NCBI GenBank assembly: GCA_030704615.1
Contig: CM060733.1
Coordinates: forward strand, 23,436,001 to 23,500,000
Direction of reading: 5' to 3'
DNA from: Takakia lepidozioides
Lineage: Eukaryota > Plantae > Bryophyta
DNA length: 64,000 bases
Below the pieces are notes generated by a model. That model searched no databases. It worked only from the letters and a program-made list of their open reading frames with translations, and was not told where the DNA came from. Both the position numbers and the translations under genes were made by a program. Each line of letters starts with the position of its first letter. Within the stretch, counting starts at the first letter, position 1. Shown here one piece after another: positions 1 to 64,000 of the stretch.

Positions 1-1944
1 AGTCAAGACTCCACCTGTAGCCAATCCCATGATAGGTAAAGGATGCAACTGTGGTGTAGGGGCGTTGAATGAAGCACACAACCCTGTCACACACCATGCA
101 CCTAGCAACAAACTGTTGCACCTCTGTATGCATACCACGCCACCAATACTGCCCTGCAGTAAACTGTGAGTGCGTCGCACTCCAAAATGCCCCAACTCCT
201 CATGGGCATGCCGCACTAACCGTGCACGCTGTGTGGGGTGAGGCACAATCCTCACCCGACCATCCTCCCACACTCAAAGTAGGTGTATCCCCTCCCACTT
301 GAACTCTTGGCTCGTTGCAGGATCGATCCCTCTCCTGGCAGTCACAATGGCTGCCGTGTCTCCCGTGCGGAGGTAGTCCCACACAGCCAAATCCTCATGT
401 ATATCTCTGGCACCACCTAGCTCATCACTAGCCTCAGGGTCCTCAGACACTCCGTCTACAGTCATCCCTGTTGTAGGTCCAATCTGACCTCCCGATGCCA
501 AGATACACAAAAATGCAGATGCGTGCCATCCTGGCACCATCTCCTCGTCCGTCACCATGCCACCGAGCTCCAGTGTCATCCTGCTGGCTCATGCATGGAT
601 TGCGACTCAATCCATCCGCATCCCGATTGACCAAACCGGTCGATGCACAACTGAAAGTCATACTCCTGGAGTATAAGTGCCCATCGTGCAAGCTTCCCCG
701 TAAGCTTGTCTGACTCCATCAACCACTTGAGTGGCTGGTGATCCGTGACAAGGGTGAAAGAGATTGCCGTATAGATAGCCCCTGAAGTGTGCCACGGCCC
801 ACACACTGCAGCTAAGCACCTCCCTCATATGAGCTGACTTAGCCTCTGCAGCGTTGTTCGAGCGGCTAGCGTAAGCCACTACGAACTCTCTTCCCTCATC
901 ATCCACCTGTGTGAGCACCGCTCCAAGCCCCAGCATGCTCCAATCCGTATGCAGCTGAAAGGGACGCCCCCTGATAGGTCGTCTCAAGATAGGCGCCGAG
1001 GTCAACCTCGCCTTGAGCTCTTGAAAAGCTCGTTCCTGCTCATCTTCCCACTGCCACTCCTGGTCCACCTTGGTCAGCTTGGTTAGAGCCTTTGCAATGG
1101 TACTAAATCCTTTGACAAACCGTCTATAATAGTTTGCCAACCCCATGAAAGCTCGAACTGGCTCACATCCGTGGGGCGTGGAATTTGTGCAATGGCCTCT
1201 ACCTTAGTCTGCTGTACCCCCAATCCTCCAGGATATATCATGTGACCCAGATACTCAATCTGGTTGTGGAAAAACTTGCACTTCCCGGATGCAACTTCAA
1301 TCCGTGCCCTCTCAAGCGCTCCAATACCACCTGAAGGTGTCTCTCATGCTCCTCCATCGTAACACTAAGATGATGATGTCATCTATGTAGCACCGAGCAA
1401 AGTCCACCCCTGCTAGAATCCTATCCATGACTCTCTGAAACTCTGCAGGAGCATTCTTAAGCCCAAATGGTAAGAACCGCCACTGATATAGGCAATCCTT
1501 GCCGTGCTCATTGATCCCCCAGAATGCCGTCTTCTGCTTGTCCGCCTCCTTGATTGGCAACTGGTGATATCCGGATCGTAAATCCAAAGTGCTAAAGGCC
1601 TTAGCATGCCCGATGGCATCAAAGATCTCCTCTGGTGTTGGCATGGCATACTTATCGGACTTGGTCTGACGATTTACAGGCCGGTAATCACCGCACATAC
1701 GTCTCTCCGTCCAATTGCCATAGACATCCTTCTTGGCTGGCATCACTGTGGCTGAAGCATACTCTCCACCAGAGAGCTCCACCAAACCTGCCTCCCAGAG
1801 ATCTTGAGTCCTCATCTGAATCAAAGACCTCTCCATGTCACTGTATCTATAGGGTCTCCGAAAGATTGGCGTGTCAGTGGCCAACTCAATACGGATCTCT
1901 TGACCCTCAGTGCTCCCAGTCCCTTCAAACTGAAGGCAAAGCAA
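1..1944 (-). pseudogene. Gypsy pol: reverse transcriptase, RNase H and start of integrase (frameshifted)
   Basis: RT: [33 protein letters not shown] (ORF 1312-1944). RNase H: LHTDWS..GLGAVL, VAYASR, TDHQPL. Integrase zinc finger HFGVRRT...CMVC read from about 1-190. Confidence 0.9.
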
Positions 1945-2379
1945 TTCCTGTAAGCCCTCAGGAACCGCCGTATACGTCGTCTCTCTCCTCCGGTGACAAT
2001 GGGTCCAATGTCAGGCTCCCAATTGTCCTCCGTAACTACAACCTTAAGTCCAGTGGGCTTAGAGGTAGAGGACGCGTCCCATGGTTGCTATGGCAACCTC
2101 TTGAGCAGTACTCCCTACCTGCTCAGTCAATGACAAGGCATCATCCTGCCCCATCATCTCATCCTTGAGGACCTCCTCAACTCGAGAAGAATCCCCAACC
2201 TCATCCATCACAGCCGCCTTGGCTGCCAACTCCCTCTGAACCTCGAGCACCTCCCCGTGTGCCATGGATGCATGCACCCCGTGGTCCTCAATGCTCGCCC
2301 CCACTCACTGCCTGTACCGTCTCGGTAGGCAGAGACCATTGAGGGAAGTGTATTCCGCACTCTGCGTTGCTCAGCTAGA

Positions 2380-3340
2380 GCCAAGCTGATAATCCAGGTC
2401 AAGCAATTGAGATCCATTGCTTGCCCAACACTTGACGACGTGATGCCTCAGAAAGAGACGACACCGCCGTGGTACCAGTGGTAAAACCCATTGCCTCGCT
2501 CACGCTCGTCAGCATTAGGCTCCACTAACTGCTGCAACTGAGCATCCCACAGGAGGCCAGGTCCACTATCCCGGAAAGCATGCGATCCTGGGAAGCTGAG
2601 CAGTGTAGGTAATGCTGCTCGTGGTTGACCCACCTTGTTGACCACTGCCAAAGGCGAACGGTCATCGTGTCTCACACGTTGAGACTGCCTCCCTGTGTCC
2701 AGAATGTATCCACTGTGAGATGTGCTGGCCGCTGCACCCATCAAATGCCACGCTTGAGCAGTGCGGGTGGCATCATGTTAGTCCACCATAGCCGTGGACG
2801 ATGAGCCCGTGACCCCACTGTAGCTGCATCCAGCAACACTGCTGACCCAAGCCACGACCGGACTTGATGCACACTGGCCATCACCCTGGCCCGAGAATTG
2901 CCCATCAGTGGCACATTCTCCAAGATGTATGCTGGAGATACAGCTTGATGAAGCTGCAAGTGGCGCAAAACCCGCACCATCTCCCAAAACAGACCCGACC
3001 TCGAGTCTGCAATCCATTGCCATGCCCGGCTGATGAATGCCCTTGGCAGGGCCAACCTGCCACTACCAGATCAATGGAGCCAACCCGCTCCAAATCCTGC
3101 GCCCCCAGCAACGAAATGTCTGCTGGCAAGGCCTGCTGATATCCACGAATTGCAGACACCGACAACAACTCAGGGTACCGCTGCACCAACTGAGCAACAT
3201 GGCGAAGTGAAACGCGTCGTGCAGTCTCATCCCTCTCCACATACAGGTAACGCCGAACTCGTACACCTGCCTGTAACACAGCAGCCAATCCGGTGCTGAT
3301 CCCGCCAAACAAGTCCAGAAGACAAATGCCTTCATCCGGA
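2380..3340 (-). pseudogene. DNMT3-like C5-cytosine methyltransferase domain within Gypsy pol (frameshifted)
   Basis: Motif I LLDLFGGIS; IV VVAGWPCQ; DSRSGLFWEMVRVL; VI YILENV; VIII DAATVGSRAHRPRLWWTN; IX-like EPNADERER; X-like RRQVLG. All in canonical order across ORFs 2905-3405, 2741-3055, 2448-2744 and the sequence near 2420. Confidence 0.9.
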
Positions 3341-3604
3341 GACTGCCACACAATAGGTGTGGTGTCCAATGGAGACAATTGAGGTGGTCCTGGTGCAATC
3401 CCCACACTCTCCTCCTCTCCTGACGGTACAAAGCCTCCACCCAGGCTTGTTGCACCCGTCGATCAGCATCCCGCTGCAAATCCTTGCTCGTGCCCCACAA
3501 TGGAGTCTGAGCAACCATGGTAGCAACTCCGCCATACCATACATGTCATCCTGCTCTCCCGGAGGTGGTACATCCCTGAATGAGCATTGCCCTCAAGCAA
3601 CTCT

Positions 3605-4224
3605 CTAGGCCAACTCACTGCCGCTGTGAATGCTGCTAGTGTCGGCATCTTGCCTCGCTGGGCAACCGCAACTCCTCCTATGAACGTCACAGGGAGCTGC
3701 ACACGCCGGCCCTCCCTGACTGCCATGCAGGCCTATAGGAAGCTGACTCCTCCCAAAATCCAGGGTGAAGCCCATGGGGTACAACACTGCCCCACCAACC
3801 AGGACATCGTATGAGACTGCGTCTGTCACAATGGCCTTGGCTCGCATCACTGAGCCATCTGTAGGGTGATCCGGCCGTAGTCTGATAGCCAACTCATGCC
3901 GTGTCATGCCCCGAGCCTGCTCCGATCCTCCAGAGACGTCTGTATCTGGAAAGGACAAGGCTCCATATCCGCCTCCGTGAGGCCCAAGCCTGCAATAGCA
4001 GCTCTGCCCAGCATCAGTGGCTGAGCTCCCGAGTCCAACAAGACTCGCAGTGGCCGGTACCTCTTGCCTGCCGGTCCACTCAAACAGAAAATGCCATCCT
4101 GGTTGTCTAACATGACAACTCCAGGTGTCACCATGGCGCGCTCAATGGCTGGCCTAGCTGGCAGCTCCATCAACCTGGCAGCTGCAGCTTGCCATGGCGC
4201 CGCCGTGGCAGTCTTGACCCTCAA
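3605..4224 (-). pseudogene. Retroviral-type aspartic protease of copy A
   Basis: VLLDSGA catalytic motif followed by YDVLVG. Confidence 0.8.
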
Positions 4225-4443: not shown

Positions 4444-6243
4444 CTACCCGTGTAGCTCTCCCCAATGGCATAGTAACCTCCGCCTCGGTAACAGTCGGCG
4501 AGAACTAGGTGCCATGGATGGCGTCGACACTGTCTCCGCCAATGTGAATGACTGAGGAAGCCTAGCCTGACGGCTTGCCTCCCCACGCTGTGGATCCAAC
4601 TCCACCTCTGCACCTCGTGGCTCAGGAACTCGTGCTGCTCCTCGAGTCACGGCTGCAGCAGACTCCACCTGCACTAGTGGTAGTGCTGCTCCACACATGA
4701 ATCCCATGCCTCCCATATCTCCTCCCTCAGGAGCAGGAGGTGGACCATCCGGCCTTAGAGCCGGTACCACCTGAGCTGTAGCCATGGCAGCGAGCCTCTG
4801 CTCTAGCTGCTGAAGCCGGTTGGCCATGCCTTGGTCAACACCCTGACCTCCGCGTCCTTGGCCACGTTGAGCTTGCCCTTGGCCTGCACCTTGTGGCTGG
4901 CCACCTCGTCCCTCTGGGGCTGCTCCACCTCGCCCCCGGCCACCATTGTTCCCTTGGAACTGGCCTGGGCGCAACTCAGGATGCAAACCATAACACTGAG
5001 CCTCTCCATGCCCGTGTTTGCCACAATGCCCACACTGTAACTGTGCAGGCTGTGCATGTGCCGGCCCTTTGCCTCCCTCTGGACAATCCTTCTTGACATG
5101 GGGTCCTCCACATGTCCAGCACACCACATCCGCCCGTTGTTGGCCAGCAAATGAAGGTAGAGACCCCTGCATCTGAGGTCCTCTCTGCCCTTCCCTGAGC
5201 TTCACCTGAGCCCCCTTGTTGCCTTGAGCACGTTGAGGTGGTGGTTGGCTAGGAGCACCACTACCCCGTGGTGTCTCCTTAGCAAATCCCACCATGACCA
5301 CTCGTTCCTCCACCATGTTGAGCTCTATCCGCTCTGCCAGCAAAAACACATTTGCTAAGGTGGGTTGGGCGCTTGTAGGAGAGTTGCATCCCGCACCCTT
5401 CTCCTCAGCTCCTTGTCCAATATCCCATACCAGAATTGGACTGCCTGAGCTTCCGTAACCCCTTGGGTTACATTTATCAAGCGCCTCATGCGAGTGAAAG
5501 CCTCCCTCAAGCTCTCGGTCGGCTTCCGTTGGAACTCTTTAAGCTCCGCAACTTCTCTGTCCTCACCCCTTGGTAGTTCCCTCTCAACTCTTCGAAGAAC
5601 TCCACGACAGGGTTGAAAGGCAGGCACGGGTGCTAGTGCTGGTGCGGTAGTGGCTTGGGTGGACGTCGTAGCTACTGTACCCACCAGTCCCACTGCTGCT
5701 TGCTGAAGCTGCCGGTGCAGCGGCAGGTGTAGCCACTGCCCTCGTGGCTCTAGTGCCCCTAGTGATGGAGACATAGTCGGGTGACCAGTACATCCTCCAC
5801 TCCTCGATCTCAACCTCATGCCCCCGCCTGAACTCATGGTAATCATCCATAGGCGGCCCCTCAAGGTGCTGAAACAGCCCTTTCCATGCCATGAACGGCG
5901 TAAATAGTTGTGGATTGCGCATTTGCTGCAAATCACACCAACTATCAAACTCTTGGATAAAATCATCCAACTCAATGGTGCCCACCGCCCCAGAGTACCT
6001 TCGTGGCCCCTTGGTAGCTCCATACATCTCCTCCATTGTGTCCCACAACAATGGCAAAGAAACAACTTGCACCGCCGGTATGAGCCCTCCTGATTCACAA
6101 TCCGAATCAGAACCTTCCGTGGAAGACACAGGAGGTGAAGGTGGCCTAAACCGCACACCTCGTCTCGTGTACCCACTAGTATCACTAGTGCTCAAACCGG
6201 CACTGTCCCCAGCAACTAGTGGCACCTCCGTGTTGACACTCAA
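4444..6243 (-). pseudogene. Gag of copy A with two zinc knuckles (frameshifted)
   Basis: Capsid-like DDFIQEFDSW and FQRKPTESLREAFTRM; knuckles CWTCGGPHVKKDC and CGHCGKHGHGEAQC. Confidence 0.85.
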
Positions 6244-6949: not shown

Positions 6950-8830
6950 CAGACCAGCACAGGCCCACACAGCTCACTGGTCAGGCCGTCACAGTCCCAC
7001 AGGCCACTGGGCACAGCCTGTCAAGCCCCTCACAGCCTGTCACAGCCTCAAGGCCTCAGGCACGGCCTGTCACAGCCCATCACAGCCCGTCACAGCCCAA
7101 AGGCCTCAGGCACGGCCTGTCACAGCCCCTCACAGCCCGTCACAGCCCCAAAGGCCATGGGCACGGCCTGTCACAGCCCCTCACAGCCCGTCACAGCCAT
7201 TACAGCCCCAGAGGCCTCAGGCACGGCCTGTCACAGCCCCTCACAGCCCGTCACAGCCCCAGAGGCCATGGGCACGGCCTGTCACAGCCCCTCACAGCCC
7301 GTCACAGCCCCAAAGGCCTCAGGCACGGCCTGTCACAGCCCCTCACAGCCCGTCACAGCCCAAAGGCATGGGCACGGCCTGTCACAGCCCCTCACAGCCG
7401 TCACAGCCCCACAGGCCTCAGGGCACAGCCTGTCACAGCCCCTCACAGCCCGTCACAGCCCCAAAGGCCATGGGCACGGCCTGTCACAGCCCGCACAGCC
7501 CGTCACAGCCCCAAAGGCCACTGGGCACAGCCTGTCACAGCCTGACACAGCCCGTCACAGCCCCACAGGGCACAGGGCACAGCCTGTCACAGCCCCTCAC
7601 AGCCCGTCACAGCCCCAAAGGCCTCAGGCACGGCCTGTCACAGCCCCTCACAGCCCGTCACAGCCCCAAAGGCCTCAGGCACGGCCTGTCACAGCCCCTC
7701 ACAGCCCCTCACAGCCCCAAAGGCCTCAGGCACGGCCTGTCACAGCCCCTCACAGCCCGTCACAGCCCCACAGGCCTCAGGCACAGCCTGTCACAGCCCA
7801 TCACAGCCCATCACAGCCTCAAAGGCCATGGGCACGGCCTGTCACAGCCCGTCACGGCCTCAAAGGCCTCAGGCACGGCCTGTCACAGCCCCTCACAGCC
7901 CGTCACAGCCCCAAAGGCCATGGGCACAGCCTGTCACAGCCTGACACAGCCCGTCACAGCCCCACAGGGCACAGGGCACAGCCTGTCACAGCCCATCACA
8001 GCCTGTCACAGCTGCCACAGCCTGTCACAGCCCGTCACAGCCCGTCACAGCCCCAAAGGCCACTGGGCACAGCCTGTCACAGCCTGACACAGCCCGTCAC
8101 AGCCCGTCACAGCCCCAAAGGCCTCAAACGCGGCTGTCACAGCCCCTCACAGCCCGTCACAGCCCAAAGGCCATGGGCACGGCCTGTCACAGCCCCTCAC
8201 AGCCCGTCACAGCCCCAAAGGCCATGGGCACGGCCTGTCACAGCCCCTCACAGCCCGTCACAGCCTCAAAGGCCTCAGGCACGGCCTGTCACAGCCCATC
8301 ACAGCCCATCACAGCCTCAAAGGCCATGGGCACGGCCTGTCACAGCCCCTCACAGCCCGTCACGGCCTCAAAGGCCTCAGGCACGGCCTGTCACAGCCCC
8401 TCACAAGCCCGTCACAGCCCCAAAGGCCATGGGCACGGCCTGTCACAGCCCCTCACAGCCCAAAGGCCATGGGCACGGCCTGTCACAGCCCCACAGGGCA
8501 CAGGGCACAGCCTGTCACAGCCCATCACAGCCCATCACAGCCTCAAAGGCCTCAGGCACGGCCTGTCACAGCCCCTCACAGCCCATCACAACCCCAAAGG
8601 CCATGGGCACAGTCTGTCACAGCCCCTCACAGCCCCACAGGCCTCAGGGCACAGCCTGTCACAGCCTGACACAGCCCGTCACAGCCCCACAGGGCACAGG
8701 GCACAGCCTGTCACAGCCCATCACAGCCTGTCACAGCTTGCCACAGCCTGTCACAGCCCGTCACAGCCCCACAGGGCACAGGGCACAGCCTGTCACAGCC
8801 ATCACAGCCTGTCACAGCTTGCCACACATG
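6950..8830. repeat. Tandem minisatellite of ~10-bp TCACAGCCC units in ~59-bp higher-order blocks, upstream of copy A gag
   Basis: Continuous cacagccc/cacggcc reiteration. It explains the spurious 657-aa and 395-aa repetitive ORFs. Confidence 0.95.
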
Positions 8831-10684
8831 GCCGCTCTGGCAGTTTAGCCATTTCTCCAAGGGGTTTAGCCACGCCAAGCTAGGGTTTGTGTCTCTTGGA
8901 CTCTAGGCTTCTTTCCACCGAGCTATGGTGGCTGTGAGGAAATCAGCAAGGTATCCTTGCTCTTTCGGCTCCCACACACCACCATAGTAGCCCTAAGCCA
9001 TGAGGTGGTTGCCACAAACCAAGCCTTCTTTCTCACTTGGCCTACCCAAACACGCCACTAAACTCAATGGCAAACAACCAAGCCCTGCTGGTTCCCAGCC
9101 CTTGTGAGCACTCATTCAAGCACTCTCCTTGGCCATAGCATCTGTCTTAGAGCCTATTCCAGCCCTCTACACCTGTTGCTTCAAGAGTTGCGCTCCTTCA
9201 AGCTTGAAGTTGAAACCCCAACTCACATAGGCCCTACAAGTGCTGTTCTTTCACTCCAAGTGGAAACCAGCCCTAGACCTTCCGTTCTAGCTCTCTAAGG
9301 CTTGAAAACAAGAGCCTCAATGGGCTGAAGGCATGCTCCACACATGCCCCACTCTCACCATAAGAGAATCAGCTCCTTTGCTTCATTTCTTGCACCCACA
9401 AACCTGATAATACAAGCTTCAGCAGGCTGAAAGCATGCTCTACATGCCCTATAGGGAAACCAGCCCCTTCCTTCCTTTCTTGCACTCCCACACCTAAAAG
9501 TGCAAGCCTTCACCAGGCTGATAGCATGCTCCACACATACATTGCCCTCACATAAGGGAAGTCAGCCCTTCCCTCTTCCTTGCTTGCCCTCCAAGCTTGA
9601 AGATGGAAGCTTCAATGAGCTGAATACATGCTCCACACATGCAACCTCTTCACACAAGAGATATCAGCCCCCTATCTTGGCTCCTTGCCTCCTTGATGCT
9701 CTCTAAGACAAGACTAAGCACTCCATAGCCTTTGCCAAGCTCCTGAAACCCTAAGGCTTACATTTCCAGCCACAAGACACTTCTCTTGTGGTGCAAGAAC
9801 TCTTCTTCCAAGCTCTGAAACCCTAGGTGCACATTCCATGGCCTTGCCGCACCTCTTAGCTCCTGTTCCAGCCCTGCTCTTGCCATGACAAGAGCCCTCT
9901 CAATGCTGAAGCTCGAGATTGAAACCCAATCTCACCATACTCCACAAAGTGCACTGATTTGCCCCAAGCAAAATCAGCCTTTTCGCTTGGTCTTGCAATC
10001 CTTCACACAATGAAAGCTCGCATTCCCAAGTCCAGTTCTCAGCTTTGCCACCAAAGCCACTATAACCTGCTCTTGACTAGTCCTCTTCCCAATCGTGTTT
10101 GCTCATGCATGTACACAATCTGGAACCATCAAGGTGCTCTGGAATTACCTGCAGCATGGTGCTTTCATCTCTGAAGCTGAAGATCGAATGCCAAGGTCTA
10201 CCACCTCGTAACCCACATCGCCTCCGCTTCTAACAACTAAGAGCTCCACGGTGCTCCTTGCATAACAACTTGGTTTCTCTCATTCTCAAGCAAAAACCAC
10301 AAGTGCTACAACTAACTCGTATCCGGCACTCACAGATACGAGCTGATCTTTCTCGAGTGATAAAGAAGAGCAATACAAGCACAAGCTCATGCGAGCTCAC
10401 AAAGCTGAAGCATAAACTCATGCATATATAACCTCATCACTCAAATACAAGTCAAGCCAAGTGCACCCCACGCCATGGGGAATCCACACTACGGCGCCAT
10501 AGCTAGGCGCGGTGAGGCTCAACTCGAGAAAGATGAGCCTCCCGCGCTTGCCGTGAAGATAACCACTCCAGGGCCTAAATCTGCCTTGACCCCTGGATTG
10601 ACACTTGGGCCAATCCCAAATGTCAATATGTAAAAGCTAGCTATTTCCTAGCTAGTTTCACACTAGTGGTAAAATAACTTGACA

Positions 10685-11323
10685 CCAACTTATGCTTAGT
10701 GTGCTTGTCCTCAATACAAGACAATAGATCTTGTTGAAGCTGAGTGAAGTTCGGAGTTGCACGGATCTGAATTGTTTCAACAGTATTTGCAAGTGCCTTG
10801 TTGATATCATCGATTTGAAGCCTCTACAGCGTTTCAGGTGCAACTGCAATTGAACCATTGAGACTGCGAGGGTGGGGGATGATATCTACATACCTTCCCC
10901 TGAACGGAAGATGTGGCTTATTTTTCCACAGATTGTATACAGTTGCATTTTTGCAAGTAACAGGCAATGTACCTGCATGTAAGATTGCCTCGCCTAGAGG
11001 TGTGTTACTGAAGTATGTGGCGAGAATGTTGTCAATACCAATGAGGCACTGGATGGAAGCGAGGACGTCTGCCTGGGGAATCATGATGCGGATCTTCTTG
11101 ACAAGAACTGTGAGAGCATCTTGTTCAACATTTCGCTCTTTGGTGGAAACTGTCGCTCCACTGATACTGGGCGTTCGAATTAGCACTTTCAGAATCTCAT
11201 TGTTGTGTCTGACCATGTGTTTCAGGGCTTTGGCACGCAAATCCTCAGATGTTGTATGGAGGAAAGCGAAGTTTGAAGATGGACTGGGCCCCAACGTAGA
11301 GGAGCTCTAGTTCGTCTCCAGCC
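10685..11323 (-). pseudogene. Coding-like fragment of unknown, probably TE, origin between two LTR starts
   Basis: Protein-like ORF 10824-11294 continues past one stop codon; no motif recognised. Confidence 0.3.
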
Positions 11324-12810
11324 TGTCAAGTTATTTTACCACTAGTGTGAAGTTAGCTAGGAAATAACTAGCTTTTATATATTGACATTTGGGATTGACC
11401 CACGTGTCAATCCAGGGGCCAATGCATGTTTGGGCACCTGGCATTGTTATCTTCACGGCAGATCACGGTGGGCTCATCTTTCTCGAGTTGAGCCTCACCG
11501 CGTCTAGCTATGGCGTCGTAGTTTGGATTCCCCATGGCGTGGGGTGTACTTGGCTCGACTTAATATATGAGTGATGTTTTCATGTGCAAGTATGTGAGTT
11601 TGAGAGAGCTTGTGTGCTTGTATCATTCCTTTCGTTAACACTCGAGAAAGATGAGCTTGAGTCTGTGAGTGCCAGGTTCGAGTTGTTTTGTAGCACTTGT
11701 GTTTTCATGAGAAGCAGTTCAGCCTAGAGTGCAAAGGCGAACAAGTTGCAGGTTTGCCATGGATAGAGAGGCAGGTAGCCTATGTTGAAGAGCGGCATTG
11801 CATAGCTCAACGCTATGGCAACCAAGTTTGGGCTTCTAATGTGAAGCGGAGGAGATGCTGGCCACGAGTGGGCGAACTGGTGGTCGTCTTCTTCAGCTGC
11901 AAGCCGAGTTAAGGAGCTGCAGGAATGTGGGCTATGCATGGGAAGCTAGCGTGTTGCAGGTTGGAGATGATATGATCAGCCCGAAACTAGTTGTTGCGGG
12001 TAGATGAGGAGCAGCCGAATGGTGGAGCTGCGAGGGGATTTATCGCAGCTCGTTGGGAGCTTCAGCTCCAAGCTCAGGAAGAGGTATGAGTGAAGAGAGG
12101 GGGCTGGTCTCTCTTATGTGCAAATCAGTGCACTTGTGAAACATGTGCTGAGTTGGAGTTTCAATCTGAAACTCAGCAGTGTAAGGGCTCTTGGAGTGGC
12201 AAGAGCGGGGCTGGAAGGGCAGCAACGAGGCGCCCTAGAGCCAGGGGATATGCATGAGAAGTGCAGGTGCACCAAGTTTGTAAATGTGTGTATTTTCAGA
12301 TTCGTTTTTGTGAGCTTCATGAAGAAATGGAGCTTGTTGGGCAGCATATTGCTTGCTTGTTGAGTTTAGGGTGCCTCTGGTGGGTTGTGAGAGCCCAAGA
12401 GAGCATGGCAGCAGGCTTGGTGGCCTCGCAGAAGCCATAGCTCAGCGGCAGCAGGTGCAAGAGCAAACCCCAGCTCGGGGAGAGCTCGGGAACACGTGGA
12501 AACGCCTCGGGAACGCATGGGAACTCGTTGGGAGTTCCAGGGCACGCAGGGAATAGTGGCCGTGATGGGCCGTTGGGGCGGGATCACAAGATACCCCAGG
12601 TCGTGATGGTTGACCGTGACCGTTGGAAGTCGTGGTGCGGACACAACGGGTGGGCACGGTGACCAGATCGTGGGGATGACGGGCCGTGAAGGCTCGTGGG
12701 CGTGGTACCATGGGGTATCACGAGGCAGCCCGTGGCCAACGAGCGCCTAGGGCAGGCCGTGAGGAGTAGTGGCGGTTAGAGCCACGGAAGGCCGCGAACA
12801 GTCAGAGTGA

Positions 12811-12842
<32 letters not shown>

Positions 12843-15670
12843 TCACTCGTTTCGTGGGACCTTGATGGGGAGGTTGGGCTCTGAAGAACAACGGTTGGTG
12901 TGACTTGCAACAAATGCGCAATCCACAATTGTTTACGCCTTTCATGGCATGGAAGGGGCTGTTTCAGCACCTTGAGGGGCCGCCCATGGATGATTACCAT
13001 GAGTTTAGGCAGGGGCACGATGTTGAGATCGAGGAGTGGATGATGTACTGGTCACCCGACTATGTCTCCATCACTAGAGGCACTAGAGGCACAAGGGCAG
13101 TAGCCACACCGGCAGCTGCACCAGCAACAACAGCTACAACAGCAGCTTCCACAAGCAGTAGTGGGACTAGTGGTACATCAACTACGACGTCCACCCAAGC
13201 TACTGCTGCACTAGCACCAGCACCAATGGCGGTGCCTGCCTTCAACCCTGTTGTGGAGTTCTTCGAAGAGTTGAGAAGGAACTACCAAGGGGTGATGACA
13301 GAGAAGTTGAGGAGCTTGCAAGAGTTCCAACGGAAGCCTACTGAGAGCTTGAGGGAGGCTTTCACTCGCATGAGGTGCTTGATAAATGTAACCCAAGGGG
13401 TTATGGAAGCTCAGGCAGTCTAGTTCTGGTACGGGATATTGGACAAGGAGCTGAGGAGAAGGGTGCGGCATGCAACTCTCCTACAAGCGGCCCAACCCAC
13501 CTTAGCAAATGTGTTTTTGCTGGCAGAGCGGATAGAGCTCAACATGGTGGAGGAACGAGTGGTCATGGTGGGATTTGCTAAGGAGGCACCACGGGGTAGT
13601 GGTGCTCCTAGCCAGCCACTACCTCAACGTGCTCAAGGCAACAAGGGGGCTCAGGTGAAGCCCAGGGAAGGGCAGAGAGGACCTCAGATGCAGGGGTCTC
13701 TCCCTTCATTTGCTGGCCAACAATGGGCGGATGTGGTGTGCTGGACATGTGGAGGACCCCATGTCAAGAAGGATTGCCCAGAGGGAGGCAATGGTGTAGC
13801 ACCGGCACAACCTGCATAGTTGCAGTGTGGGCATTGTGGCAAGTACGGGCATGGAGAGGCCCAGTGCTATGGTTTGCATCCTGAGTTGCGCCCAGGCCAG
13901 TTCCAAGGGAACAATGGTGGCCGGGGGCGAGGTGGAGCAGCCCAAAGAGGATGAGGTGGCCAGGCACGAGGTGCAGGCTAAGGGCAAGCTCAACATGGCC
14001 AGGGACGTGGAGGTCAAGGTGGTGACCAAGGCATGGCCAACCGGCTTCAGCAGCTAGAGCATAGGCTCGTTGCCATGGCCACAGCTCAGGTGGTACCGGC
14101 TCCAAGGCCGGATGGTCCACCTCCTGCTCCTGATGGAGGAGACTGGGGAGACATAGAATTCATGTGCAACACTACCACTAGTGAGGGGTGCCACTACCAC
14201 TACCACTGTGGGAGGGGCACCACTACCACTAGTGCCAGGCAGGACTACCACTACCACTTTGTGCAGGGCAGGACTACCACTAATGGAGTCAGCTGCGGCA
14301 GTGACTCGAGGAGCAGCACGAGTTCCTGAGCCACGGGTGCGGAGGTGGAGTTGGATCCACAACGTGGGGAGGCAAGCCGTCAGGCCAGGCTTCCTCAGTC
14401 ATTCACATTGGCGGAGACAGTGTCGACGCCGTCCATGGCACCTAGTTCTCGCCCGACTATTACCGAGGCAGAGGTTACTATGCCATTGGGGAGAGCTACA
14501 CGGGCTGCACCACTACCTAGTGTTGCCAATGCTACGGCAGCTAGTGTGCTGCTGGGGGCAGCCACATCTGTATAGGCTCCATTGTTCTCGGTTAAGACCA
14601 ACTGAGGTATTCAGGCTGGCAGCTATACTCTGTGAGAGTGGGGAGGTTACTTCATCTTCTGCGGAGATAGTGGGAGATGTAGTGCCGGAGGGATCCTCGG
14701 ATTTGAGAGTCAAGACTGCCACGGTAGCGCCATGGCAAGCTGCAGCTGCTAGGTTGATGGAGCTGCCAGCTAGGCTAGCCATTGAGCGCGCCATGGTGAC
14801 ACCTGGAGTTGTCATGTTGGACAACCAGGATGACATTTTCTATTTGAGTAGACCAGCAGGCAAGAGGTATCGGCCACTGCGAGTCTTGTTGGACTCGGGA
14901 GCTCAGCCATTGATGCTAGGCAGAGTTGCTATTGCAGGCTTGGGCCTCACGGAGGCGGATATGGAGCCGTGCCCTTTCCAGATACAGACATCTCTGGGAG
15001 GATCAGAGTAGGCTCGGGGCATGACACGTCATGAGTTGGCTTTCCGACTACAACCGGATCATCCTACAGATGGCTCAGTGATGAGAGCCAAGGCCATTGT
15101 GATAGACGCGGTCTCGTATGATGTCCTTGTTGGTGGGGCAGTGTTGTACCCCATGGGCTTCACCCTGGATTTTTGGGAGGAGTCAGCTTCCTATAGGCCT
15201 GGATGGCAGTCAAAGGAGGGCCAACGTGTGCAGCTCCCTGTGACGTTCATAGGAGGAGTTGCGGTTGCCCAGCGAGGCAAGATGCCAACATTGGCAGCAT
15301 TCACAGTTGCAGTGACTTGGCCTGGAGAGTTGTAGGATGACAATACTCATTCAGAGGATGTGTCACCTCCGGGAGAGCAAGATAACATGTATGGTATAGC
15401 GGAGTTGCCTGCCATGGTTGCTCACACTCCATTGTGGGGCTCGAGCAAGGATTTGCAGCGGGTTGCTGATCGACGGGTGCAACAGGCCTGGCAAGAGGCG
15501 TTTGTACCATCAGGAGAGGAGGACAGTGCGGGGATTGCACCAGGACCACCTCAGTTGTCACCATTGGACACCACACCGATCGTGTGGTAGTGTCCGGATG
15601 AAGGCATTTGCCTTCTGGACTTGTTTGGCGGGATCAGCACCGGGTTGGCTGTTGTTCTACAGGCAGGTGT
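11324..15670 (+). mobile_element. Truncated copy B of the DNMT-carrying Gypsy (LTR, deleted leader, gag, protease, start of DNMT)
   Basis: LTR is the inverted match of about 9830-10684. Gag resumes abruptly near 12895. LLDSGA present. EGICLLDLFGGISTGLAVVLQAG ends at 15670. Several TAG stops. Confidence 0.9.
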
Positions 15671-16609: not shown

Positions 16610-17336
16610 TGTCGCGCACCTCACTTCGGTAAGCTCCCCTTCAAGTCATAGTTACTCGCTTTGATGCGCGCGCCTGACTCCCAACCTGGCCGCCGGGCCA
16701 ACTTGGAGCTTCGGCTGCTCACCGGGGCATAACGGTCCCCCTTTGTTCTCCCAAAGAACCCTCCACCGATTTGGAACCAGCGGGAATTCCCTTTGGTAGT
16801 TGGCAGTCCGGAACAGCTCCCCACTCTTTGGTCGCTTTCCGGCTCGCTCGCTTACTCACTAGTTTTTGGTCACCAACGGGCTTGCACCGTTCTCGGGGTT
16901 ACTACTCCCTATATATACTTCTGTAGCTGTCCGCGGGGGTTTCACAACCAGCCATGCCATTTTATGGCGAACCACCACGAAGACCCTCGATTCCCGGTGG
17001 TGAGTCGCGGTGAGTCTTGGCCCGCTCACCACGGCCCCTATGGACCGTGATGAGTCCCAAGACTCCCCACGACTCCCACCACGAGGTCTCCGCCCCCATG
17101 GTGAGTCCTATGCCACCCCCACTAAGTCCCACTAAGCTACCACCACCCCTTGTGGAGCCACCCCCACCGCAACCCGGTGTGCGGGGCTCCACCTAGTGAG
17201 CGCCTCCGCTTCCCTGAGTGCCTTGGGCACTCAAGGGTGCTTCAGCCCCCCATACCTATCGCTGCCGCTGCCCCCACCATAGGGGCAGCCCCTCATGTGT
17301 CCCGACCCCCTGCCCTCAAGGCAAAGGGCCGCGACA
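16610..17336 (-). repeat. 3' LTR of the chromovirus (727 bp)
   Basis: Bounded by the TSD and the PPT; TG...CA ends; TATATATAG on the minus strand near 16910-16918. Confidence 0.85.
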
Positions 17337-18236
17337 CACACCCCTACCAACAGGGAGTCGATGTCCTCATCGACTTGTCCATTTTGTAGAAACGAACATC
17401 CAAGTTGTGGCGTCCCACATCAAGGAGTTTGTTTCTGTACCATGGCGTCCCATGGCAAAGAACCAAACCCCACACTTGACTCTACTCTCCACTAGCTAGC
17501 TCGGCCGACTTCCTCCAAGTCCCAGCCAAGGGTGGAGCCTCTCCAGCTCCTCCCAGTGCACTCTTCTTGGCCTAAGGCCAAGGAACGATCCTCCTTGAGG
17601 ATCGAATCGCCTTACTGCAACAACATTGCTTGCGATCGCTCATGATGCCGCTTTTGGCATCACCTTGAGCAAAGGTTCCCTGGAACCCTCTTTGACTAGG
17701 AAGATAACCTTGAACCAACCGTGCGCCCCAATCACTACAATTGGGTCCGCCTTGGAATGCTGGCCTGAGGTACGGGAACACGCCGAAGCCGCACTACGAC
17801 TTCGTCCCGAGGCTACACGATTATAGTACGTGAACGGAAGTACGTAGCTTCCGCGTTAGCCCGCACTACAAGGCAACCCCCTCCGTAGCGCAGTTATAGT
17901 ACGCGCACGCGCCAGGTGCGCACTAGCACGTGAACTCCCAAGGAAGGCGCAAGTTTTCTTGCCCCTCGGATGGGGGTCACCCGATTTCGGCACTACACAA
18001 ACACACGATTAACCCAATTTACCTCTCCCACTTTTATAAGCTAGCATGCATTCTACACACTAGCCAACCATACCATGCATCACCATTCCAAACAAAATAG
18101 GACGCACAACATTTGGAATCCATTTCATTTATAGCACGTTTTGGTACAATACAAGTTTTTGCAATCGGATTCCTAAGCTAGCTAAGCTGGACTAAGCATG
18201 CATTTCCTCCCCCACGCTCCAAGGTTGATGTCCCCA

Positions 18237-21200
18237 TCAACTCTTCTTCCGCTTTTGAGGTCGCCCTTCGAAAGCTGCGACCGCCTCAGATGCGTTTCCC
18301 ATTTCTGAGGCACGCACCCAAGATGCCTCCACCTGATGATAGCCCTTCCATTTGACGAGATACTCCGTTCTTTCGGTTCCTGAACCTCCTCGACTTAAGT
18401 ATTGCCTCCACCTCGTACTCAGGTTCATTCTCATGATCCAACAGCATAGGTGGCGGACGCAACACTTGATGCCGATTCGGACGCGCTTCATCTTTGAAGT
18501 AAGGCTTCAAAAGGGAGACATGGAATACTGGGTGCACCTTGCTGTTTGCCGGCAGCTCCAATTCATACACATCCTCATTCATAACCTTCCGAATGCGAAA
18601 GGGTCCCGCATACGGAGGTACGAACTTCGGACTCACTTCCGGAGGTAGTCGGAAATTCTTGATGTTCAACCAGACCTCTGTGCCTGCCTCAAACTTCACT
18701 TCCCTCTGCTTCCGATTCGCCTGCCTTTCATACCGTTTCCTGGCTTTGGCAATGTTGTACTTTGCGAGCTTCAACAAACGCTCGCGTTCTTCCAGTACCG
18801 CCGCTACTGCCGGTTCCGCAACGTCCTGGGCGGCCCAACTTGTCGGCACCAGAGGTGCTTTTCCATAGACCAATACGAAAGGGGAAACTCCCGTTGCGGA
18901 TTGTTCTGTGTTATTATAACAGAACTATGTCGCGTCTAAGTGTTCCATCCAGTCTGATTGGTCTGCCGACACGTAATTCCGCAAGAATTGCTTCACTACG
19001 GAATTCACTCTTTCCGTTTGGCCGTCCGTCGTAGGTCGGAAGGCGGTGCTCATCTTCAGCCTCGTCCCCATCTTCTTCCAAAGTGCTCTCCAGAATTTAC
19101 TCGTAAACTTTGGATCGCGGTCCGAGACAATATCCTTCGGGACTCCATGATGCTTTAAGACGTGGGCGAAGTAAAGTCGCCCTGTCTCCTGCGCCGTTGC
19201 CGTCTCCTTGGTGGGGATGAAATGGCCCATTTTACTGAACCTATCTACCACCACCATGATTGCATCGAATCCTTTTGACAGCGGCATAGCAGTCATGAAA
19301 TCCATCGAGACGCTTTTCCAAGTCCCCTCTGGAATCAGCAAGGGTTGTAACAGCCCCGCTTGCTCGCTCCGGTTTTGTTGGCATGTGGTGCATGTCTTGA
19401 CATACTCCTCTGCCTCCTCCCTCAGTTTGGGCCAGAAATACTCTTTCTTCAAGAGTGCCGCAGTGCGCTTGGCTCCGCCGTGGCCCGCAAGCGGGCTATC
19501 ATGGCATTCTCTCAAGAGGCTATCTCTGATCCCTCCCTTCGGCACATAGAGACGTTTTTTGCTTATACCGGAGCAGTCCATTTTGCAAGTGGAACTGCGA
19601 TTTAACCCCCCATTCTCAAGTCCTGCATCACGGACTTTGCCAGCTCATCCTTCCGGCAAGCCTTCCGGATCTTCCTTTGGAGCGCCGTCTCGCCATTGTA
19701 CACCAACAAGAGCTGCTATTTTCTACTTAAAGCATCGGCCACCACATTGTCCCGTCCCGGTTTGTACTGGATATCCACGTCAAACACTGCCAAAGTATCT
19801 TGCCACCTAAGTTGTTTTGGGACAACTTTGGGCTGCGTGGCAAAATACTTCACCGTGACATTGTCCGTGAACACCTTCACTAGGTTGGAACCAACATAGT
19901 GGCGCTAGAGCTCAAGGCAATGCACCACCGCCTTCATCTCTTTTTCGTGCGTCGGCCACCGTCGCTCCACTTCATTCAGTTTCTTACTTTCGTAAGCCAC
20001 TGGACGTCCATCTTGCATAAGTACACCCCCAATCGCGAAGTCCGATGCATCTGTATGAATCTCAAACGGACGATCGAACTCCGGGATTTTCAAGACTGGA
20101 GCTTCCATCATCCGCTGCTTCAATTTCAGCAAAAGCTTGGCCACAAAATGTGTTCCATACCCAGACTTTGGATTTACACAGAAGTCCGACAGCGGCCCCC
20201 GCGATCTTGGCGAAATTTCTCACATACTTCCGGTAATAGGAGGCGAGTCCTAAGAAGGATCGCACTCCCGGGACCAAAGTCGGAGGCTCCCAGTCCAAGA
20301 TCGCCCTCACCTTTCTGTCATCCATTTTGATCCCATCCTGTGTATCACATGCCCCAGGAACTCCACTTTTGTGACCCCGAATTCGCACTTTGAAGCTTTG
20401 GCATACAGCTTCCCTTCCCGCAATTTTTGGAACACCCTTTTGAGGTGCTCCAGGTGCTCCTCCTTTGTTTTCGAGTACACCAAGATGTCGTCGATGTACA
20501 CGATCACAAAGTCATCCAACCACTCCTGGAAAAGGCTGTTCATCAGCGTGCTAAATGTCGCTGGTGCATTGGTGAGCCCAAAGGCATCACCAAGAACTCA
20601 TATGAACCATACCTTGTCCTGCACGCGGTCTCCTCATCTCCTTCGCCACCCGAATTTGGTGATAGCCGGAGCGCAAGTCGATCCGGCTGAAATACTTTCG
20701 CTCCTGCCAACCGATCGAAGAGGTCGTCGATCCTTGGCAAAGGGTACCGGTTTTTGATAGTCACCTTATTCAGAGCCCTATAATCGACACACATCCGCAG
20801 CGTCCCATCCTTCTTGTCTGCAAATAGCACCGGGCTCCGTAAGGTGACTTACTCGGCCGGATGTACCCCTTTGACATTAGATCCTTGAGCTGAGTCTTCA
20901 GCTCGACCAACTCTCTGTGGCTCAACCGGTAGGGCGCCTTGGCAGGCGGTTCTGATCCCGGTATCACCTCAATCTTGTGGTCAACTCCTCTTCGCGGTGG
21001 CAAGCCGCTTGGTAAATCCTCCGGCATCACATCCTGGTATTTCTCCAGATCCCCTTGATCCAATCTGGGCTCGGCTCCCCATCGCCTTCTCCCTTCACTT
21101 CTCTAATGTAAAGCAAAAACTGGGGCTCGTGTGCCTCCTCCACGGCCCACTCCTTTGCTGACAGAAGGTTTATTCGCCCTCCCACGGATTTGGACGTTTC

Positions 21201-22500
21201 TGACACTCGTAAAACCTCGCCACCATTCCCACATGGCAGCGTGACTATTCTCTTGCGGCCATCTATGACCGCTCCGGATTTGCTCAAAAAGGTCATCCCC
21301 AAAATGAGATCCACTCCATCGATCTCGCAGATGGTGAAGTTCTTACGTCCCTCCCAACTCCCCAGTTGAAGAGGAACATCAATCGCCAACCTTGTCGCCA
21401 ACTGTGGTTCTCCTTTGGCAGAACGCACCTCAATAGAGGCCCCCACGTCACTTGTCGGGAGTCTCAGCTTTTGTGCCGTTGCCGTGTCATGAAGGAGTGC
21501 GACGCTCCTGTGTCCACCAACAACGACACATTAGTTCCGGATATTATCCCATCCACGAACAATAACTGACTCCCTTTTCGTAAGGCGCCAGTTTCCTGAT
21601 ACAACTCACAAGAAAATTTGCCTACCTTGCAAGTCCTGGCGACCACCGCTTCCACCAAGCGACTGATGGTATCTTCCGACAGCTCTGTGGTCGCCCGAGT
21701 CATGTTCAATTGCCGGGGCTTCGTGCACTTCTTGGCCATGTGCCCGGGCTCCCCGCAATTGAAACACACTCCATCAAAGGTCGCCTTCTGTCCGCCATAA
21801 GCCGCTCCACCCGCTTTTCCTTTCGAAGCACCGGGTGCCGCCTTGACATGTGAAGGCCCTCCCTTTGATTTCCACGTGCCATTTTCGCCGCGTGGCCTAT
21901 CCCACTTCTTTTCCGTCGGAAGGAGTCACCTTCCCGCCGAATCTTCTTGTGGTTCAGCTCTGTACGGCCTTGTCTTTCACCCCTAGGGACAACTAAGAAA
22001 CATTCAGCCCTCTCAATAGCCTCGTTCAAAGTCTTGGGTGGCTTCTCCTCAACCTTCCGCCTGGCCCATGGGGCCAGTCCCGCCACAAAGTTGAAGACCA
22101 TTTCTGGTTCTGCCATGTCCGCGACTTCGAGCAACAGCACATTGAAAGCCTGGACATACCCCCGAATGTCATCTGTTTGCTTCAAATTCCTCATCTTGTC
22201 TCAGGCGAGCCAGGACGCGTTGAGGGGCACAAACTGTCTCTTCATCAATTCCTTGAACCCACTCCAGTTCAAGGTTTCCGGGCTTGGACCTCGGTCGTGA
22301 AGGCGTTTCTGCCACCATTGTTGAGCATAGCCCCTCAAATAGGTAGGAGCCACTTCCACCCAATCCTCGTCACTCAACTTGGCCGCCCGGAAGTACTGCT
22401 CTAGCTCCAAGAGCCAGGTGTTGAGTGCCTTCCGATTTCGGACGCCCTCGAAGGTGCCGGGTTCCTTAGGCTTCACCTTAAACTTTGCCTTAGCGGAAGT
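18237..22500 (-). pseudogene. Chromovirus gag-pol: Gag, zinc knuckle, protease, RT, RNase H, integrase, chromodomain (many frameshifts)
   Basis: CFNCGEPGHMAKKC; LVDTGASH; [10 protein letters not shown]; VYIDD; HTDASDFAIG; HDSPLAGH..CTTC; VSDRDPKF; TDGQTER; YEVEAIL...EYLVKWKGY..ASW. Confidence 0.93.
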
Positions 22501-23411
22501 GGCATTAGTCGCCTTCAACACGTCTTTCAACGTCCCGCCAAACTGCGCCGAGCAGGGGGGAGGCGCAAAATTTGCGTCGCCCGACAGTCGTCCGGCAGTC
22601 GCATGGGTGTCGCCAAAATGACGTCGCAAAAATGCGACGTATGGGGGTCGCAAGCCCCCGCCCCAACTCCCGCGACTGCCGGACGTCGCTTTTCATGCCG
22701 TCCGCGCCGATGGCAGGGGCCTCCTTCGAGCGACGTCTCGCCGTCGCGGCCCTCCAGCCGATGGCGTTGGTGAGGGTGCCAGCGCGGCGTCGCATCCCCT
22801 TTTTTTTCGAGTCCCATCCTAAAACCCAAAAACACGTGGCATAAGGGGGTGGTACGCCAAACGACTATTGGGCGAGGCAAAAAAAAACAGCAGGAGCAAG
22901 AGTCGGGCTCCGCCACGCCCGTGCGTGGGTTTTCGCGACGCTCTGGCGTCGTTTTTTTTAATATTTAATCCAAAAAAAAAAAAAAAAAACGTGGCGCAGG
23001 CAGGGTGGCGGGCTCCGCGATGCCAGGGCGTCGCGGCTTGCGACCCCCGAACCAAAAAAACACGTCGTAGGGGGTGTCGGGCGTTGCCGCCCGCAAATGG
23101 GTTTTGCGATGTCCGACCGTCGCAGCTTGCGACCCCCGCCCAAAAAGCACGTCGCCATTGGCGACATCATGCAATCGCGAGGGCAGCCTGGTGGTGGGAG
23201 GGGGGGGTTGGGGGTTGATTTTGGGGGCCACCCCCACCGCAACCCGGTGTGCGGGGCTCCACCTAGTGAGCGCCTCCGCTTCCCTGAGTGCCTTGGGCAC
23301 TCAAGGGTGCTTCAGCCCCCCATACCTATCGCTGCCGCTGCCCCCACCACAGGGGCAGCCCCTCATGTGTCCCGACCCCCTGCCCTCAAGCCAAAGGGCC
23401 GCGACAGAAGT

Positions 23412-40755: not shown

Positions 40756-41690
40756 TGAACGAAAGTTGCGGAATCCTCGAACTGATAGCCAGCAATTACC
40801 GAAAGGGGAATTAAGACAAGCAAACCGAGGTCAACAAGGGTAGCTCCAACCCAAAGGTTGCAGGTGATGCATGCAAAGGATGTAGGGATGAGATGCACCT
40901 TCACTTCGGAAACAGCAACGCCAAGAGGCACTAACCAAAAAAACTGTTTTCAAATACTACAAGAAGCCGTGCTGTTTATGGATAAAAACAAACACTGAAA
41001 ACGACATGAAACCATCCATTATGAAAAGACGGCAACAACCCTGGAGAGCAGTAAACAGGAAGACCACAAATGTCATGAGGTTGTGCTGTGCCAGAAGAGC
41101 ACAACACAAACACTGACACTGCAGAAGATACCTCGCACGAATGCGTGCCAGACATGGTCGTATCCGACAGAACCCTTTATGCCGAATGACCCCATGGCGA
41201 CGGTTACGGTAAAATGCAAACCACAGGGTAGGCAGTACAACACACGTGGATGCATATGTGAAGCATAACAATTATTGCGGATCTGCAAGAACTGCTCGAA
41301 AATGAACTAACATTAGATTTCTACGGCACATCCGAATTTGAAAGAAAGCAAGAAGGCCGCGGTGTATTGGCAGGCAGCGCAGTACATCTGACATATATCG
41401 CTAGTGCATGCAACGGATGTACTTTTTTTCTAGCGCTTTATTGCTTGGATAATACGGAGACGACGGAATGGATGAATTCCGTTCGCACACAATAACAACA
41501 CCCGCATCCAAATATGGTTGACAACGTCCAATTTCGATTTTGGTTACATGCCATAGCAGCACTTGTTACAAACGTCAAACTGGAGAGCTCTAGAGGCATC
41601 GTGGGGAGCCCTTGTTTCCAGCGGAGGAGGAAGAGAAGGAAGTCACTATACTTCACGAGCTCTAGAAACAGGAATAGAGCCAGAGATAGA

Positions 41691-52640: not shown

Positions 52641-52677
52641 TTAAAAAAAAAAAAAAACCAGCACTTCCACAGCATTC

Positions 52678-63932: not shown

Positions 63933-64000
63933 TGTCAAGTTATTTCACCACTAATGTGAAACTAGCTAGGAAATAGCTAGCTTTTACATATTGACATTTG
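63933..64000 (+). mobile_element. Start of a third LTR of the DNMT-Gypsy family, inserted into the Copia gag
   Basis: TGTCAAGTTATTTCACCACTAATGTGAAACTAGCTAGGAAATAGCTAGC matches 11324 (+) and 10684 (-). Confidence 0.9.

Follow-up and report, generated by a model that had tools for sequence, protein, structure and literature searches.

The closest described system is KnitGypsy-Dnmt3 of the alga Klebsormidium nitens, a Ty3/gypsy retrotransposon that carries a cytosine methyltransferase (DNMT) of the DNMT3 type, a capture regarded as confined to the K. nitens lineage (de Mendoza et al., 2018, PMC5890265). Its Ka/Ks is below 0.2, and the enzyme gave no activity in yeast, a result called inconclusive by the authors (PMC5890265). 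In the available text of that paper, the account of KnitGypsy-Dnmt3 contains no mention of a stop codon or readthrough, a PHD finger (0 occurrences), self-priming, target duplication or an integration model; Marchantia and Sphagnum do not appear in its three text supplements, nor does Marchantia in its main text. Other known systems share single traits. Ngaro/PAT-like elements and SymbioDIRS-Dnmt3 have the A-internal-B-A-B arrangement of split direct repeats that is found here, but use a tyrosine recombinase (PMC6681497, PMC5890265), whereas the relatives described below encode an integrase of the rve type, are bounded by TG...CA and show 4-bp target duplications. The self-priming chromoviruses of the Tf1/Sushi and Tcn1 groups have a PBS complementary to their own 5′ repeat (PMC6317226), and Gypsy-7a_cRei is a green-lineage Gypsy element with a PHD accessory domain (bioRxiv 2022.06.16.496473), both as here; these elements have ordinary LTRs and no DNMT is described for them in the available parts of the two sources, whereas no chromodomain was seen here. 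With regard to plants, an opinion paper stated that land plants such as tracheophytes lack methylase-bearing transposons (PMC6338049), and two other sources mention such elements in "streptophytes", a term that could include bryophytes (PMC12344493; bioRxiv 2026.05.21.726589). The text supplement of PMC12344493, as far as available, gave no match for such elements, and the available text of PMC9516144 and PMC10952607 does not mention DNMT-bearing elements. In the open-licence literature, we found no bryophyte report of the element, and integrase-bearing split-repeat elements only in PMC5890265.

Here, we analyse a stretch of 64,000 nucleotides from Takakia lepidozioides (the window), which contains parts of three copies of a DNMT-bearing retrotransposon. 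The longest, copy A, very probably belongs to the KnitGypsy-Dnmt3 lineage of Ty3/gypsy elements: it resembles KnitGypsy-Dnmt3 in its Gypsy domains, in a non-rearranged, intronless DNMT3 with the key residues kept, in A-B-A-B repeats and in purifying selection (PMC5890265), and the partial K. nitens model GAQ93235.1 has zf-CCHC, protease (PR) and DNMT in the same order as the window family. It differs in its host, which is a bryophyte instead of an alga. The bryophyte host, the position of the DNMT before a conserved stop codon and end features pointing to integration from a circle are new here.

The copies in the window

Copy A is dead: each of its genes is frameshifted, and PR also contains a stop. 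It runs off the window, so its own integrase core, PHD finger and 3′ end lie outside. The features of the three copies are as follows:

10359..10684, minus strand: 5′ terminal repeat A1 of copy A, 326 nt, starting TGTCA, the att-left end (inverted match to the end of copy B; contig depth ends at 10684)
10522..10534, minus strand: 13-nt stretch in A1 complementary to the putative PBS, the predicted self-primer (complementarity)
10346..10358, minus strand: putative PBS for self-priming, adjoining A1 and not of the TGG type used with tRNA (perfect complement: copy A 13 nt, copy B 17 nt)
6982..8818, no strand: array of tandem repeats, with periods of 10 nt and 51 nt, within the long 5′ leader of copy A (repeat analysis)
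5340..6036, minus strand: gag, capsid region, frameshifted (tblastn with P0005)
4990..5125, minus strand: nucleocapsid with two CCHC zinc knuckles (translation of ORF 4444-5538)
3700..4176, minus strand: aspartic protease (LLDSGA at about 4040), with a stop at 3906 and frameshifts (Pfam, alignment, motifs)
2365..3345, minus strand: DNMT3-like C5 cytosine methyltransferase, motifs I-X, four frameshifts (motifs, relatives, tree, fold)
2082..2090, minus strand: TAG stop in the frame of RT, with CAA CCA downstream, a predicted site of readthrough (ORF 1821-2087; CAR-YYA rule, PMC2194720)
1271..2081, minus strand: linker and reverse transcriptase (RT, 2004-1271), frameshifted (PF00078, E 8e-18)
500..1176, minus strand: connection and RNase H (RH) (PF17919, E 1e-27)
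1..273, minus strand: zinc-finger start of the integrase (IN) (PF17921, E 1e-4)
11324..11656, plus strand: A1 repeat (11324-11639) and PBS (11640-11656) of copy B, head-to-head with copy A and 639 nt apart (predicted leader-PBS helix)
12890..15670, plus strand: gag, PR and DNMT motif I of copy B, ending where a CACTA-type end begins (15671)
63933..64000, plus strand: start of a third copy (A repeat, TGTCA), 97% identical to the first 68 nt of copy A

Copies A and B are 90% identical and share the same PR-to-DNMT junction (15600-15670 in copy B), and the related loci bear out the suggestion made in a preliminary description of the window that this junction is a family trait. The tandem array in the leader of copy A was not seen in copy B. 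The 639-nt spacer between them (10685-11323) holds an open frame of 160 codons (ORF 10824-11306) that has no match in Pfam.

A DNMT3-like methyltransferase

On the minus strand of copy A, every C5-methyltransferase motif from I to X lies in canonical order between protease and RT (3318-2409), as the preliminary description had read from the catalytic motifs. Read by motif, they are placed as follows:

3318-3301, minus strand: motif I, LDLFGG
3243-3229, minus strand: motif II, YVERD
3057-3043, minus strand: motif IV, GWPCQ
2920-2912, minus strand: motif VI, ENV
2806-2777, minus strand: motif VIII, AHRPRLWWTN
2507-2496, minus strand: motif IX
2440-2423, minus strand: motif X, RRQVLG

The motifs are spread over three frames, with switches near 3007, 2705, 2485 and 2426. 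A search with PF00145, which had been proposed at the outset, gave a divided answer: the two DNMT pieces of the window match only weakly (E 4e-4 and 3e-3, below the Pfam cut-off), but the intact relative P0001, which is 68-71% identical to them, passes (E 6e-11). The ESM Atlas confirmed PF00145 and nothing beyond. Among PDB sequences, P0001 matches DNMT3A best (E 6e-12) and then DNMT3B, with DRM2 at 2e-4 and HhaI at 4e-3, and its predicted fold also matches DNMT3A (Foldseek E 2e-12; model pLDDT 61, moderate, with residues 250-304 unreliable). Judged by sequence and predicted fold, the domain is thus DNMT3-like, in agreement with the first impression of it. It shares the motif order I-X and the fold with host enzymes such as human DNMT3A/B and Physcomitrium PpDNMT3 (PMC6453930), but structural identity to them is about 21%, and its target-recognition region (residues 250-304) is longer and poorly predicted. 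Unlike for host DNMT3, Pfam reported no PWWP, ADD or DUF3444 domain on P0001 or P0005.

The catalytic PC and the glutamate of ENV are invariant in all 22 aligned relatives. Between copy A and the related locus L008, pN is 0.173 for DNMT, 0.169 for gag and 0.147 for RT but 0.30-0.36 for linkers, with synonymous sites saturated (pS about 0.76 for DNMT, RT and gag). Comparison with L047 gave a dN/dS of 0.11 for DNMT and 0.08 for RT, and comparison with L065 gave 0.15 for DNMT; pS is saturated in the other pairs. Pairs inside the main related family have values of 0.54-1.07 for DNMT and 0.43-0.84 for other domains, which mostly reflect decay after insertion. The DNMT is therefore under purifying selection and, between families, is conserved like RT, contrary to the neutral evolution that the preliminary description had named as fatal to its view.

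CG depletion was considered as a sign of self-methylation and rejected. The observed/expected CG ratio of copy A (0.52) is close to that of a neighbouring element without DNMT (0.55), so self-methylation is not shown by it; the ratio is 0.41 in copy B, 0.89 in the chromovirus and 0.62 in the kinase gene of the window.

Relatives and distribution

Related loci were collected from metagenomes: 160 stretches were confirmed and 80 loci kept, some of which represent one insertion found in several assemblies. Where the flanks are long enough, PR is seen upstream of the DNMT in 47 of 57 loci and RT downstream of it in 52 of 59; as the loci were selected by DNMT, this means that the DNMT is nearly always in an element and not the reverse. 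In two runs (X3 and X5), contigs are present over each of the 30 bins into which the window element was divided, with the DNMT covered like the rest, as measured by depth and not by copy fractions. This suggests a high-copy repeat, since one of the two runs is an assembly of 1.75 Mb.

A search with a DNMT piece of the window found 47 longer proteins, and all 25 with a species name are from bryophytes (19 Marchantia, 4 Calypogeia and 2 Sphagnum). The DNMT of copy A nests with the relatives from Marchantia and Calypogeia (support 99/95). The expectation that the phenomenon extends to land plants thus holds for bryophytes, with this liverwort nesting and the Sphagnum models, but no vascular plant is among the named matches, although annotation masking could hide them; the claim of absence in PMC6338049 so far holds for vascular plants and not for bryophytes. 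Nineteen annotated Marchantia gene models are pieces of such elements, and DNMTs of this kind can be taken for host genes. DNMT-carrying retrotransposons are now in bryophytes, including Marchantia, and no longer confined to a hard-to-study alga, so that the question raised in 2018, what role a transposon's own methyltransferase plays, becomes testable genetically.

A profile search yielded 72 long proteins and 376 representatives at E below 1e-30 (the best 150 of the 376 were considered), in which two architectures occur. The order PR-DNMT-RT was found in bryophytes, Closterium, Klebsormidium (GAQ93235.1) and a model labelled Mesvir1, read as Mesostigma. The order RT-RH-DNMT-IN-PHD was found in a large group of long polyproteins (P0182-P0221) that includes Haematococcus and a model labelled Chrzof1, read as Chromochloris; DNMT-bearing Gypsy elements of this order were not found in the literature searched. 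The two groups fall on opposite sides of one branch (97/89) in a tree of 58 selected rows, which has a weak backbone, and the Klebsormidium protein is on the same side as the window copy. Being without host DNMT3, this tree is unrooted, and it fits either one capture followed by a move or two captures. In an RT tree, the outgroup rows were mostly fragments of the family itself, and the sole true chromovirus row was 47% filled.

Reading frame and the conserved stop codon

In which protein is the enzyme made? The domain order of the relatives is gag-PR-DNMT-stop-RT-RH-IN, with PHD at the end of IN. In L008 and L064, about 1550 codons from gag to RT lie in a single frame that is broken only by stops, which answers the doubt whether the DNMT is ever in frame with pol. 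Between DNMT and RT, one particular codon position holds a stop in 54 of 55 related loci, with no other position exceeding 38%. The stop reads TAG-CAA-CCC in 39 loci, CAA CCC ATG follows it in 51 of the 55, and the context is TAA CAA TCA in the distant subfamily L076. ORF1-type proteins end 70-188 amino acids past motif X (17 with a scorable motif X, of 20); P0237 and P0383 are single ORFs without the stop.

The enzyme therefore ends the gag-protease-DNMT frame (ORF1) and does not belong to the RT-bearing frame. The preliminary description had placed it in pol, which is correct in that it lies between PR and RT, but it is not part of the RT-IN product. Similarly, the idea that it is made as part of a polyprotein holds in so far as gag, PR, DNMT and RT of L008 and L064 share one frame, but needs the qualification that it lies upstream of the stop. 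Because of this position in the gag frame, the DNMT would be made with Gag, in excess over RT and IN. Conversely, the DNMT of the chlorophyte elements, located between RH and IN, would be scarce.

In copy A, TAG CAA CCA at 2090, in frame with RT, agrees with CAR-YYA, the readthrough context of tobacco mosaic virus (PMC2194720). The CAA CCC ATG of most relatives differs from this context by one base and brings with it an ATG in frame, which makes reinitiation or splicing possible as well. In Tca2, which has an in-frame stop, readthrough was undetectable in yeast (PMC2194720).

Terminal repeats, priming and integration

Complete A-internal-B-A-B ends were found in the relatives L019, L060, L062 and L064. 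Two full direct LTRs were not encountered, the 5′ end being A only and the 3′ end B-A-B or B. Standard LTR finders need two full LTRs, so such elements fail them and may be under-counted. In the window family, A1 is seen, and beyond 10684 a B-type end follows in 22 contigs, joined by CA-GC-TG. Among the relatives, TG...CA ends with exact 4-bp target duplications occur in all five independent insertions for which both ends were found (six loci, two of them the same site), and none of the five duplications is NCGN, the preference of the Phygy clade (PMC6317226). A CA-NN-TG palindrome occupies the internal B|A joint in eight of eight B-A-B loci of the main family (two decayed to TA); it recurs in the window family and in L057 and L065, two subfamilies whose repeats are unrelated in sequence. 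The integrase of the relatives is of the rve type and bears a PHD finger at its C-terminus; L064 has the PF00665 core and PHD, with a D-to-E spacing read as 34, canonical minus one. The precomputed Pfam lists of related proteins, which cover translated regions, contain no tyrosine recombinase family. In L057, this 3′ end lies at 16672-17324 and belongs to another element, which has repeats of its own sequence but the same purine tract, the B-A-B layout and a CA-GT-TG palindrome.

A purine tract lies immediately 5′ of B1 and a PBS-like stretch immediately 3′ of A1. In copies A and B, the latter is complementary to the interior of A1 over 13 and 17 nt, respectively. In the main family, a complement of 10-12 nt to A1, different in sequence, is present in 7 of 16 ends and a PBS-like 10-mer after A1 in 11 of 16; a perfect complement of at least 10 nt is found at 31-33 nt past the TATA position in 5 of 16 (two being one insertion) and elsewhere in 2. 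Shuffled sequences reached a complement of 11 nt in 3 of 2000 cases. Self-priming thus fits the main family imperfectly, and the TATA of that family is absent from the window family. The leader-PBS fold of copy B has a z-score of -5.4, for a stretch that was picked after the match was seen.

With the purine tract before B1 and the PBS after A1, the predicted cDNA has B+A at both ends, so that the attachment sites are buried inside. Circularisation of such a cDNA and cutting at one B|A joint would give exactly A-internal-B-A-B. The A2|B2 junction is nearly identical in 5 of 6 independent insertions, which would fit clean ligation but also inheritance, and the sixth, L060, carries a 17-nt filler there, as might arise from end joining. 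We infer from these end features that they point to integration from a cDNA circle. Foamy virus integrase is reported to cut the palindromic att-att junction of 2-LTR circles to make processed ends (PMC1180852). That junction consists of ligated normal LTR ends, whereas the one described here is inherited as part of the repeat, and its cleavage would be the principal route.

Eleven loci have a B-only 3′ end, in addition to L013, which is cut at the contig end, and three of them have target duplications. These ends were considered as proof of 1-LTR circles and rejected: L042 (B-only) and L059 (B-A-B) share about 85 nt of right flank, and the B-only ends can therefore result from post-insertion recombination or from a collapse in the assembly.

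Proposed mechanism and alternatives

Our reading, which we consider by a small degree the probable one, is that copy A is a dead member of the KnitGypsy-Dnmt3 lineage whose DNMT ends the gag-protease frame, would be packed at capsid levels and probably acts on newly made cDNA of the element itself, methylating it ahead of insertion. An outline of the process would be as follows: ribosomes read through the stop at a low rate to make RT-RH-IN-PHD, and PR releases DNMT inside the particle. The minus strand would be self-primed by pairing of the 5′ end of the RNA with the PBS after A1, and the plus strand would start from the purine tract that precedes B1; the product would be a linear cDNA that carries B+A at either end. 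After circularisation, the DDE integrase would cut the CA-NN-TG palindrome inside one B+A repeat, which produces two ordinary CA-3′ ends with 2-nt overhangs and, on insertion, A-internal-B-A-B flanked by a 4-bp target duplication. The cDNA would be methylated by the abundant DNMT, most likely in the CG context; new copies would then carry the mark on arrival, and host MET1 would maintain it. Extended to the whole group, a proposal that we hold tentatively and with some doubt, this would describe an ancient green-plant Ty3 lineage, from chlorophytes to mosses and liverworts, in which the integrase attachment sites have moved inside the LTR, integration by cutting a cDNA circle is obligate, DNMT3 is packed at capsid stoichiometry via a leaky stop and each new copy is inserted already methylated. 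Whether circle junctions can be the main substrate of a DDE integrase is a question for which the end structure provides a natural test; if the proposal is true, this would be an integrase-bearing retroelement with the circle as its normal route and with relatives in the model plant Marchantia.

Is the circle necessary? The A-B-A-B ends could instead be copied from RNA as in Ngaro/PAT-like elements, so that a linear cDNA with A and B ends integrates ordinarily and no circle is cut. The near constancy of the A2|B2 junction suits such a route, as does the fact that A1-B1-A2-B2 repeats are standard in tyrosine-recombinase elements (PMC6681497), but a purine tract before B1 and a PBS-like stretch after A1 predict B+A at both cDNA ends, and the filler in L060 also argues against it; we consider linear integration unlikely. 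The target of the enzyme may likewise be other than particle cDNA. After release, it could act on host chromatin, at the insertion site together with the PHD-bearing integrase, on genomic copies or on competing elements. An integrase with a PHD finger is present in both architectures, plant host DNMT3 methylates heterochromatin de novo (PMC6453930) and DNMT adjoins IN in the chlorophyte elements, all of which speak for such a role; the bryophyte-group DNMT, by contrast, lies in the gag frame before the stop, which implies bulk packaging instead of one copy per integration complex, and we regard action on chromatin as unlikely.

The DNMT might also serve mainly to protect or handle the cDNA circle, by binding or by methylation against self-insertion or nucleases, any host epigenetic effect being incidental. 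The terminal structure implies a longer-lived extrachromosomal intermediate, the att palindrome holds CAG/CTG and an adjacent CG, both methylatable, and SymbioDIRS-Dnmt3, of the same A-B-A-B layout, has DNMT3 too (PMC5890265); but SymbioLINE elements have DNMTs without a circle stage (PMC5890265), and this function seems quite unlikely as the main one. That the DNMT is a neutrally evolving captured passenger, or an algal contaminant, is highly improbable. The frameshifts of the window copy and the raised DNMT dN/dS within the main family could be read in this way, but the within-family pairs mostly show decay after insertion and the DNMT is conserved like RT between families, and the sequence nests with liverwort sequences and shares its contig with an S-domain receptor kinase. 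Methylation of the element's own cDNA before insertion thus remains the reading that we prefer.

Other features of the window

The receptor kinase just mentioned (28369-31068, minus strand) is of the S-domain lectin type, with frame breaks near 29300-29410 at the kinase start that represent an intron or a lesion; among the named sequences in the best 120 of its 354 matches, identity is highest to Ceratodon (49%), with 42% to a lycophyte, at most 38% to flowering plants and 37% to a liverwort. Together with the nesting of the DNMT among liverwort sequences, this would be in keeping with a moss host distant from Ceratodon. A second, younger Ty3 element occupies 17154-23406 (minus strand), with direct repeats of 183 nt at 98%, an SH3_Tf2-1 domain and, by eye, a chromodomain-like tail; it is likely of the Tcn1 type. 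Two related sets of cysteine-rich, transposon-like ORFs (37847-40830 and 52645-53735) are inverted relative to each other, 66% alike and, by eye, contain a SWIM-like motif; two of their ORFs had no Pfam match. The window further contains a tandem array of about 4 kb with a unit near 115 nt (42230-46330), an exon of a bHLH gene (56158-56919, minus strand) and a piece of a DDE_1 transposase (62330-62947, minus strand).
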